A stretch of DNA of 64,000 bases from contig JBFMEB010000003.1 in the NCBI GenBank assembly GCA_040753675.1, positions 1,715 to 65,714 on the forward strand, written 5' to 3'. The notes under the pieces are model-generated. The model made no database searches. It had not been told where the DNA came from and saw only the letters and a list, made by a program, of their open reading frames with translations. Shown here piece after piece: positions 27,591-30,500 of this stretch (within the stretch, counting starts at the first letter, position 1; every line of letters begins with the position of its first letter). This DNA comes from Candidatus Omnitrophota bacterium (lineage in GTDB: Bacteria; Omnitrophota; Gorgyraeia; JAHJTE01). The translations under genes were made by a program, and so were the position numbers.

Positions 27591-30500
27591 TTATATATCC
27601 AGGTTCCGTACCGCATGTGCATGGGCTTCAATAAATTCCCTGCGCGGCTCAACTGCATCACCCATAAGTATGGTAAAAGTCTTGTCTGCCTCAACTGCAT
27701 CCTCTAATGCCACCCTTAGCAGGGTACGTTTTTCCGGAGCCATCGTAGTGTCCCAAAGTTGTTGTGGGTTCATTTCGCCCAGACCTTTATAGCGCTGAAT
27801 TAACATGCCTTTCTTTGCATGGGCCTTAACAAAATCCAGGACGCCTTGTAAATCAAGAAAGTCATATTTTTCCTTCTCTTTTTCATTCTCAATTCTGTAA
27901 ACCGGCTTTGGCTTGTCTTTTTCCTTTAAATCTGACTTTAGTGGATGGGTAAAAGTGTCAATATCCAGGCCTAATTTTTCTATTTTTTTAACAATTTCCA
28001 CAATATCTTCTGTCTCATATAGTTCCAATAAATCTTCGCTAATATTTTCAATGCTTTTAATAAGCTTTTCCAATTCCTCTTCAGAATAGACAAATTCGTA
28101 TTTATCCTCCACTTGTAACCTATAAAGTGGTAGTTTTTTGGTCTTCTTATGTCTAAATTTGAGTAATTCTTCTAATTTAACTCCCCTTTTATTTAAAAAT
28201 GACCCTAATTTTGTTAATTCAGACAGCAAAGTCAATAACTCCTTAAATTGTTTGTCTGTAAAAGTTTTCTTATCTTTTAAAGAAGTTAAACTGTAGCCTT
28301 CGCTGCCCAACTCCAAAAGTAATTCATCCATCTGATGTTCAGTCTGGATATACTCTTCTCTATGGCCGCGCTTAATCTTATATAAAGGTGGTTGGGCGAT
28401 ATAAACATTACCTCCTTCAATAAGTTTTGGGATTTGCCGGTAAAGTAAAGTCAAGATAAGAGTCCTGATATGCGAACCGTCAACATCAGCATCGCACATA
28501 AGAATAATCTTGGAATACCGCAGCCGGGCAATGTCAAACTCCTCTCCCACCCCTATCCCGAGGGCAGCAATGATAGTGCATACCTCTTCATTGCTTAAGA
28601 TTTTATCCAGCCGGGCTTTCTCTGCATTTAAAATCTTGCCTTTGATTGGCAGAATCGCCTGGAATCTTCTGTCCCTGCCTTGTTTGGCGCTATTATGCAC
28701 AAAAACTCCACAGGATAAAGCAAAGTTATGAGTATTAGGCACCTCAAAATCATAGACGTCTATTTTCTCTCTTAAGGTTTCAATTTTCTTTATTCTGTGA
28801 TTAAAATTGTGCACTGCATTAAATAGCTCTTCTCTATTATTATCAAAAAATCTCTTCAATAAAGTGCCCAATCTAAGTAAATTATTATTTCTTTTAGGTA
28901 GGCACTGCCTTTCTTTATCATATTGAGCAATATCCCCATGCTTTTCATAAACATCTTTTAAAAACTTTAAGCTATGGTTTAAATAAGTCAAATTGTAGGC
29001 CTTTTTTCTTTTTTCTCTAAATTCCTTATCCCATTGTTGGCTCGTCTTGACACGACGCCAAGCTATTAATTTCTCATTTTGCCATTGTTTTTTAGCTATA
29101 GTGGAAAGGTGTATCCTTGCTTGGGGATAAATTTTAAAATATTCTCTTAGTCGCCTAGATTGCTTATCTCTATTTTCTTCGGAAGACCAATATTTTTTCT
29201 GTGCTTCATAAATAATATTTAAAATCCTTTTACGATAATCTAAATTGTTTCTATAAAATGCTCTATATTTGCTTACCATGTATTCTTTATAATTTAGATC
29301 TCGCCATTGTTTCTTGGCCTTCTGGCTTAAAAACTCGCCATAATTGTCTCTAATAACTTGGGAAATCTTGCGACGATATTCGGGGCTCCTTTTTATTCTA
29401 TTGCATTTATCAATTACATCCTGCCTATGGAGTGTCAACTTTACATTAGCCCTATGGATCCCTAAATGTTCGTTTTTACTTAATCTTTTAATATTATCTG
29501 GATTATTGTTTAATTTATTAAAGTCAGTGTGATGTTTATATTCTCCTTGTGCCTGGCTATAAACGTTATTTTCTAAATTGTATTTATCCGACAATAAATG
29601 CACAAAAATCCATTTATTTGTTTTTGGATTTAATACCATCCTATACCCGGCAATGGTAATTCTATTTTTTATCTCGGATATCTTTTGCCGAAAAGGCATT
29701 AAGCTCATTTTGGGTTTTAAATCTTTTGCTTGGGCGTACGAACCATCTCGTAACATAAATTTATGATCCGGCGTGCAGGCTATCTTTTCATTATTATCCA
29801 AAGTCACCTTTATAACTTCTGTCCGTCTTTTTGTAACACGAGGAGATAATATCTTTTCAACCCCGATGTCCCCATCTCGCCTGATCGTATAACAATAATT
29901 AGTCTTGCCTTCTTGCCATTCTTCGGTTAAATCTTCAAGGCTTAAATGCCTACCATCAGCAAGGGCTATTTTTGTATCGGCAGCAAAACACCCTCCGGCA
30001 GAATCGCCTTCCACAATATAGAGTTCACACAAAGCTGGATCAGACTCAGAACAATCAGCAAGTTTACCAGGCAAAGAGGTGCCTTCTAACGCGCCTTTTC
30101 TTCTGGTTAACTCGCGGGCCTTTCGTGCTGCTTCGCGGGCCTGAGAAGCCAAGATAACTTTATCTACGATTTTATTTGCAACCGGCGGATTCTCTTCAAA
30201 GAATGTACTTAGGCTGTCAAATACGCAGGAGGAAACCAATCCTTCTATTTCAGAATTACCTAATTTTGTTTTTGTCTGGCCTTCAAACTGTGGGTTAGGA
30301 AGTTTTACGCTAACTACCGCAGTTAATCCTTCCCGGACATCGTCACCGGTAATCGAGCTTGATTCGCTTTTAAACAATTTTTTATTTTTTGCATACTGGT
30401 TTATAGCTCGGGTAAGGGCTGTTTTAAAACCAATTAAATGCGTCCCGCCTTCAACTGTATTAATGTTATTTGCAAAAGAAAATATATTATCAGTATAGCC

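Follow-up and report, generated by a model that had tools for sequence, protein, structure and literature searches.

A divergent member of the widespread gyrB HNH-intein allele interrupts the TOPRIM domain of GyrB in a Candidatus Omnitrophota bacterium

We analyzed a 64,000-nucleotide (nt) stretch of DNA from a Candidatus Omnitrophota bacterium (contig JBFMEB010000003.1, positions 1,715 to 65,714 of the forward strand; hereafter the window), in which the gyrB gene, coding for DNA gyrase subunit B, carries an insert of 433 codons. The insert is very probably a class-1 bifunctional intein, i.e., one that combines splicing with homing, and belongs to the known gyrB HNH-intein allele situated in the TOPRIM domain of GyrB. 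The allele has long been known and is very widespread; the window copy is a new, divergent member of it.

In the program-made list of open reading frames (ORFs), the gyrB precursor spans window positions 27591-31280 on the minus strand and codes for 1229 amino acids (aa), made up of a 796-aa extein and the 433-aa intein. The insert corresponds to precursor residues 431-863, is encoded by 1299 nt at 28692-29990 of the minus strand, and is in frame with gyrB, with no stop codon and no frameshift. It lies between EGDSAGG and SAKQGRDR of GyrB, starts with a cysteine (Cys1) and ends with GVFVHN (His432-Asn433 in intein numbering), and the serine of SAKQ follows as the first residue of the C-extein (Ser+1). 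A first-pass annotation, made from the sequence and the ORF list, had described a 1229-aa GyrB interrupted for 433 aa exactly between the glycine and the serine of this motif, by an insert that ends in VHN and leaves a Ser+1; the ORF, the residue boundaries and the terminal residues all agree with that description. It had also held the insert to be directly readable at 28692-29990. These coordinates stand, and the strand, which it left unstated, is the minus strand, the plus-strand translation of the same interval being full of stops.

Removal of the insert in silico yielded a GyrB extein of 796 aa that is otherwise ordinary. It matches the NCBIfam gyrB model TIGR01059 with an E-value of 1e-295 and PRK14939 with 1064 bits, and it carries the Pfam domains HATPase_c, DNA_gyraseB, Toprim and DNA_gyraseB_C. 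The N-extein (GyrB aa 1-430; 29991-31280, minus strand) reaches the start of the TOPRIM domain, as judged from the Toprim match and the alignment with Escherichia coli GyrB. The C-extein (GyrB aa 864-1229; 27591-28691, minus strand, stop codon included) begins with Ser+1 and comprises the Toprim match at 864-963 and DNA_gyraseB_C at 1157-1218. Since the Toprim profile match picks up at profile position 13, immediately past the insert, the intein divides the TOPRIM domain just past EGDSAGG. The spliced junction region aligned with E. coli GyrB (3nuh_B) without a gap (E 5e-72).

The insert was recognized as an intein by three curated models. Pfam Intein_splicing matched insert aa 8-433 (E 8.8e-22, 78 bits against a cutoff of 35.8), the NCBIfam N-terminal splicing model TIGR01445 matched aa 1-79 (E 4.4e-13, above its cutoff), and the C-terminal splicing model TIGR01443 matched aa 411-433 (E 2.6e-5, 24.3 bits against a cutoff of 15.6). 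The Hint N-terminal lobe (aa 1-100; 29691-29990, minus strand), delimited with TIGR01445, contains block A with Cys1 and block B with T73-x-x-H76 (CTPDHKF), and the Hint C-terminal lobe (aa 398-433; 28692-28799, minus strand), delimited with TIGR01443, contains blocks F and G (GVFVHN). We compared these blocks in a family alignment of 19 members (alignment A1), in which the window intein is 45-53% identical over 433 aa to 18 relatives. Residues C1, T73, H76, H432 and N433 are invariant, as are V412, Y413, D414, H421, N422 and F423 of the C-terminal lobe. When PDB sequences were compared using HMMER, DnaE inteins had ATKDHKFM opposite block B (CTPDHKFM), and the segment of blocks F and G paired with VYDIGVESDHNFAL. 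Hence, all the hallmarks of a class 1 intein (Cys1, TxxH, the terminal HN and Ser+1) are present.

The fold of the insert leads to the same assignment. An AlphaFold2 model built on the 19 family members had a mean predicted local distance difference test (pLDDT) score of 86, and in a Foldseek search of the PDB its top 30 matches were all inteins, with E-values from 2e-6 to 5e-4. The best matches among solved structures were mini-inteins, namely NpuDnaE (4kl5, E 2e-6), Ssp DnaE, Ssp DnaB and Mtu RecA. The first-pass annotation had called the insert an intein, and had proposed a search for the Hint domains as a check; the N- and C-terminal models both scored above their curated cutoffs, and the model structure agrees with them. 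A search with hidden Markov models (HMMs) of the family revealed no second intein in the 64-kb window.

Between the two splicing lobes lies a nuclease module. Its core (intein aa 101-185; 29436-29690, minus strand) consists of a small beta-sheet and an HNH beta-beta-alpha-metal finger, with a catalytic histidine and metal-ligand asparagine and histidine residues. The motif comprises H153, H154, N161, N162, P164, N166, H175 and H179 (about window positions 29442-29540), all of them invariant in the family alignment. The spacing between its main residues (H-H, 12, N, 9, H, 4, H) resembles the one seen in colicin E9 and other canonical HNH enzymes. Three HNH endonuclease families of PHROGs matched the module (E 2e-6, 2e-5 and 2e-4), Pfam HNH_3 matched 14 of the 19 aligned family members (best E 1.5e-5), and the predicted fold of the central domain matches HNH proteins. 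No LAGLIDADG family of Pfam was found on the insert at E ≤ 1, nor on the central region at E ≤ 10, and the sole weak match on the insert was Hom_end_hint (16.8 bits against a cutoff of 32.1). A LAGLIDADG-type nuclease was therefore rejected, given the lack of a family match and a central-domain fold that fits HNH proteins. The earlier reading of an HH...N...H HNH-like motif in place of LAGLIDADG is thus borne out by the PHROGs matches, by the invariant residues and by HNH_3 in the relatives. The HNH model search that accompanied this reading gave a divided answer: it was positive for the family and stayed below threshold for the window copy alone.

The core is followed by a basic, Trp-rich region (intein aa 188-350; 28941-29429, minus strand) that is all-helical in both AlphaFold2 models. 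The motif LS..AK.QW recurs along it, and aa 218-250 and 292-318 were aligned to each other by hhalign with a probability of 96% (E 1.8e-9), which marks the region as a repeat array. Five of its tryptophans (W229, W268, W303, W311 and W320) are invariant in the family alignment. Searches matched the array neither to a Pfam family (E ≤ 10) nor to any sequence in the PDB. Other HNH homing enzymes have DNA-binding extensions, and by analogy with these we presume that the array is the DNA-recognition part of the element. The module ends with short helices (intein aa 354-394; 28809-28931, minus strand) that possibly form a helix-turn-helix. A more far-reaching reading, which we put forward as a speculation that is unlikely to hold, is that the array may constitute a modular domain, so far uncharacterised, for recognizing the near-universal gyrB sequence that encodes the TOPRIM motif, perhaps enabling homing across bacterial phyla and into archaea. 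An addition to this reading, in which splicing, and hence gyrase activity, would depend on redox state through the invariant Cys72 and Cys33, is still less likely.

From the conserved residues and the established chemistry of inteins, the GyrB precursor of the window is predicted to splice. Cys1 would undergo an N-to-S acyl shift at the Gly430-Cys1 bond, the hydroxyl of Ser+1 would attack the resulting thioester to give a branched ester by transesterification, and Asn433, aided by His432, would cyclise to a succinimide, so that the intein is freed. A final O-to-N shift would then restore a native peptide bond and an intact TOPRIM domain, whose site would otherwise stay split. The I-HmuI-like HNH nuclease, either excised or still embedded in the precursor, would be positioned by the Trp-rich helical repeats and would be expected to nick or cut a gyrB allele that lacks the intein, at the GGG/AGC junction or close to it (here and below, the slash marks the insertion point). 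Recombinational repair off the intein-containing allele would in turn copy the element into the empty gyrB. The peptide encoded at the target is conserved almost universally, and for this reason one and the same element could home from phylum to phylum and even between the bacterial and archaeal domains.

To place the window copy within its family, homologues were collected at the protein and genome levels. A protein search returned 578 homologues, with E-values down to 2.6e-149, and every homologue with Pfam annotation has either GyrB domains or the intein domain alone; many carry the NCBI name "intein-containing DNA gyrase subunit B". Their hosts include Omnitrophica, Patescibacteria/Parcubacteria, Nanoarchaeota, Woesearchaeota, Methanosarcinales and cyanobacteria. 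Junctions were scored by the patterns DSAGG/C, or HN/S followed by an AKQGR-type motif. At least one junction pattern was matched by 82 of the 120 listed protein homologues, and all 82 show DSAGG/C or HN/S. Among these 120, complete family inteins are mostly 429-435 aa long, and shortened derivatives of 238-412 aa also occur. When one genome per GTDB species was considered, at least 596 genomes, from Omnitrophota, Patescibacteria, Cyanobacteria, DPANN archaea and others, carried a relative. The best genome match among the matches listed, in an Omnitrophota metagenome-assembled genome (MAG; L001), is 61% identical. A look-up of the exact GyrB precursor sequence retrieved no record. A profile of the nuclease module, run against 1.84 billion representative proteins, gave 1896 matches at E ≤ 1e-3 and 96 at E ≤ 1e-30.

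The insertion site is constant in the loci compared. From the 80 loci retrieved, 70 parse as uninterrupted inteins, and all 69 parsed loci with flanks of 30 nt on both sides have the same insertion site and flanking codons as the window. The homing site reconstructed from the window reads TATATTGTGGAAGGCGATTCTGCCGGAGGG/AGCGCCAAACAAGGCAGGGACAGAAGATTC. Over these 69 loci and the window, its flanks are conserved mainly at codon positions 1 and 2, about as much as the protein requires. A gyrB intein allele common to Halobacteria, Cyanobacteria and Proteobacteria has been reported (Soucy et al. 2014; PMC4071816), and 33 GyrB inteins were counted in a later survey (Novikova et al. 2016; PMC4760082).

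The element is missing from close relatives of its host. The closest GyrB relatives of the spliced junction region have a contiguous GDSAGGSAKQ in 116 of 120 cases and an intein start in none of the 120. The intein-free top relatives are 77-83% identical over the junction region, and those named Candidatus Omnitrophica or Omnitrophota are 73-82% identical. Furthermore, the similarity of the inteins does not follow that of their hosts. Across 64 loci, identity to the window is 47-58% for the intein and 48-79% for the flanking extein (r = -0.06). The most similar host GyrBs (72-79%), from MAGs labelled Omnitrophota or Planctomycetes, include some of the least similar inteins (47-53%), and inteins of Margulisiibacteriota and Saccharibacteria are among the most similar to the window copy (56-58%). 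Both the intein-free relatives and the uncorrelated identities fit horizontal spread by homing. Part of the missing correlation between intein and extein could, however, come from saturation in this fast-evolving element.

Selection on the module was assessed from the ratio of nonsynonymous to synonymous substitution rates (dN/dS). Because the window copy, at no more than 61% aa identity to its relatives, has saturated synonymous sites, the estimates are confined to closer family pairs, and only pairs with unsaturated dS were used. The ratios were 0.07-0.22 for the HNH core, 0.11-0.22 for the helical region and 0.004-0.16 for the splicing lobes. Since the values for the nuclease module are comparable to those for the splicing lobes, the module is kept by selection in the family. 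Taken together, the intein-free relatives, the intein similarity that does not track host similarity and the purifying selection fit a mobile homing intein.

The state of the window copy itself is less clear-cut, and apart from the possible saturation mentioned above, several points weigh against a homing-competent element. With Pfam HNH_3 the window copy scored only 11.5-12.3 bits (E 0.14-0.24), below the cutoff of 24.8. A search of the literature located no measured endonuclease activity for any GyrB intein. The window copy has eight deviations at positions conserved at 90% or more; in the family the median is 4 and the highest number is 12. Two of them, E117R (29640-29642, minus strand; Arg against Glu in 99% of relatives) and T130V (29601-29603, minus strand; Val against Thr in 96% of relatives), are located in the beta-sheet beside the HNH core. 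Finally, the GC content at third codon positions (GC3) of the intein is 0.30, inside the range of 0.25-0.44 of the neighbouring genes. Although the GC content of the intein is 33.0%, against 40.5% for the extein, and the intein is enriched in Asn, Arg, Trp and Tyr, its composition is uninformative on recent acquisition because GC3 falls within the range of the host, and composition as a sign of recent transfer was rejected on these grounds. As a separate observation, other copies labelled Omnitrophota or Planctomycetes are similarly deviant at conserved positions.

Because of the eight conserved-position substitutions, the nuclease of the window copy may be impaired or retargeted; judged from its residues, it may be active, retargeted or weakened. 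The strongest form of this doubt is a splicing-only relic, i.e., a genuine intein that still splices, whose HNH nuclease is inactive, and which is fixed, vertically inherited and decaying late in the homing cycle; it must still splice because gyrB is essential. The deviations, the two substitutions beside the core, the subthreshold HNH_3 score and a codon composition with no sign of recent arrival speak for it, and the shortened derivatives show that nuclease loss does happen in the family. On the other hand, the module is full length (433 aa, the family mode being 431-435) and has no stop or indel. The window copy retains 115 of the 123 positions conserved at 90% or more, every catalytic residue included, with all the invariant HNH residues and all the conserved tryptophans of the helical array, and in the family the nuclease module is under purifying selection. 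The closest host relatives have no intein, and therefore the element is not fixed in the clade. We regard a relic as plausible for the window copy, although it is the less likely state, and if it proved right the identity of the element would be unchanged.

A different role was also considered, in which the intein has been co-opted as a conditional-splicing regulator, a post-translational switch that gates gyrase, for example by redox through Cys1 and Cys33/Cys72. This would account for the retention of the intein in a replication protein. Across the family, C72 does not vary and C33 is conserved at 90% or more, and the concentration of inteins in replisome proteins has been put forward as a hint of function (PMC4760082). 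However, as neighbours of block B the conserved cysteines may serve structure or catalysis, selfish homing fully explains both the sporadic distribution and the conserved nuclease, and the related Ssp GyrB intein splices efficiently in the foreign context of E. coli (PMC3620165). We find such a regulator very improbable. That the insert is no intein, and is a lineage-specific GyrB insertion domain or a bacterial intein-like (BIL) domain kept in the mature protein, has nothing specific in its favour beyond the existence of lineage-specific GyrB insertions and the fit of the extein to the 803-position PRK14939 subfamily model, and it was rejected as effectively refuted, since all hallmarks are present, the curated intein models score above threshold, the insert splits the catalytic TOPRIM motif, and it is absent from E. 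coli GyrB, from the closest relatives and from all solved GyrB structures, an absence that the first-pass annotation had singled out as the means of telling an intein from a lineage-specific domain.

The window element, a homing intein in our preferred interpretation, can be compared with several known systems. The prototype of its family is probably the GyrB intein of Synechocystis sp. PCC 6803 (Ssp GyrB), which is widely used as an engineered mini-intein. The HNH-type intein dealt with by Dalgaard and colleagues in Nucleic Acids Research in 1997 is reportedly the same one. Like the window intein, it has GyrB as host protein, Cys1, a terminal HN and Ser+1, and an HNH rather than a LAGLIDADG nuclease. 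What we take to be the sequence of the Ssp GyrB mini-intein matches the window copy at 61% identity across the N-terminal 109 residues and at 71% across the C-terminal 42, and its best matches in the retrieved data are cyanobacterial GyrB inteins (73-86%). Those of Pseudanabaena, Rivularia, Pannus and Trichormus are 435 aa long, share the identical site GDSAGG/C...VHN/SAKQGR and show 49-52% identity with the window copy along its full length. Hence, relative to the Ssp GyrB type, the window intein is a divergent, separate copy, about 50% identical overall and with an Omnitrophota host. In E. coli, splicing of Ssp GyrB is efficient, and the S11 split intein was derived from it (PMC3620165).

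The classification of His-Me finger nucleases by Jablonska et al. (2017) contains, as group 22 (PF13392), the "Gyrase subunit B intein / dCTP deaminase intein", to which 84 members from bacteria and 7 from archaea were assigned (PMC5714182). This group names exactly the kind of element found in the window. Relative to that survey, the gyrB family has become far larger, as the genome and nuclease-profile counts given above indicate, and the window copy taken alone scores under the HNH_3 cutoff. I-HmuI (PDB 1u3e), the HNH homing endonuclease encoded by an intron of Bacillus phage SPO1, is only 17-19% identical to the module. It is a free-standing protein of 174 aa encoded by a group I intron, and it has no counterpart to the long Trp-rich repeat array of the window intein. 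I-HmuI is a nicking enzyme. The Hint fold is shared with LAGLIDADG inteins (PI-PfuI, 1dq3; Tli and Pho VMA) and with the mini-inteins (Npu and Ssp DnaE, Ssp DnaB, Mtu RecA). In the LAGLIDADG inteins the nuclease is likewise placed between the N and C lobes, but it is unrelated to that of the window intein.

A profile search of representative proteins revealed that the N-terminal part of the nuclease module recurs beyond GyrB. Giant portal proteins of the T4-like phage type (P0148, P0170, P0183 and P0195; 1593-2413 aa) contain the HNH module and have two to four Intein_splicing stretches each; some of them also have HNH_3, and one has LAGLIDADG as well. Multi-intein portal proteins of this size may merit a separate study. 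A GyrA protein (P0222) carries an intein with the same HNH module. In phage genomes, distant relatives (24-30% identical) were found in a dCTP deaminase, a DNA polymerase, a terminase and a protein of Bacillus phage SP-15. The latter, annotated as a hypothetical protein (KT624200.1, 12642-13772), aligns with the whole 433-aa intein (24.5% identity, E 2e-24), and in Aphanizomenon phage CL131 (MG209611.1, 68717-69433) a related HNH intein is located in dCTP deaminase.

The neighbourhood of gyrB was also inspected. The genes dnaA, dnaN, dciA, gyrB, gyrA and one for a SIS/glutamine-amidotransferase protein (probably glmS) follow each other on the minus strand, and yidC diverges on the plus strand from 34864. 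The 100-aa ORF between dnaN and gyrB (31295-31597, minus strand) codes for a homologue of the DciA helicase loader (PF05258, E 2.3e-17). A perfect DnaA box is found at 34239-34247, and boxes with one mismatch at 34228 and 34784. Based on the gene order and the DnaA boxes, this gyrB-adjacent region, which also takes in 31604-34254 (minus strand) and 34255-36390, is probably the replication origin region. Over the whole window, 24 DnaA boxes were counted against 16 ± 3.6 expected by chance, which is not clearly above chance.

These results are of modest practical use. Any gene caller or pipeline that takes gyrB as a marker has to excise the 1299 nt to obtain the true 796-aa GyrB. The Synechocystis member of the family is a workhorse of split-intein protein engineering. 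The survey shows that: i) the allele occurs much more widely than the published counts (33 to 91) imply, with at least 596 carrier species genomes, many of them from Omnitrophota, Patescibacteria and DPANN archaea, and ii) the window copy adds a divergent member to it, at most 61% identical to the species representatives among the matches listed.

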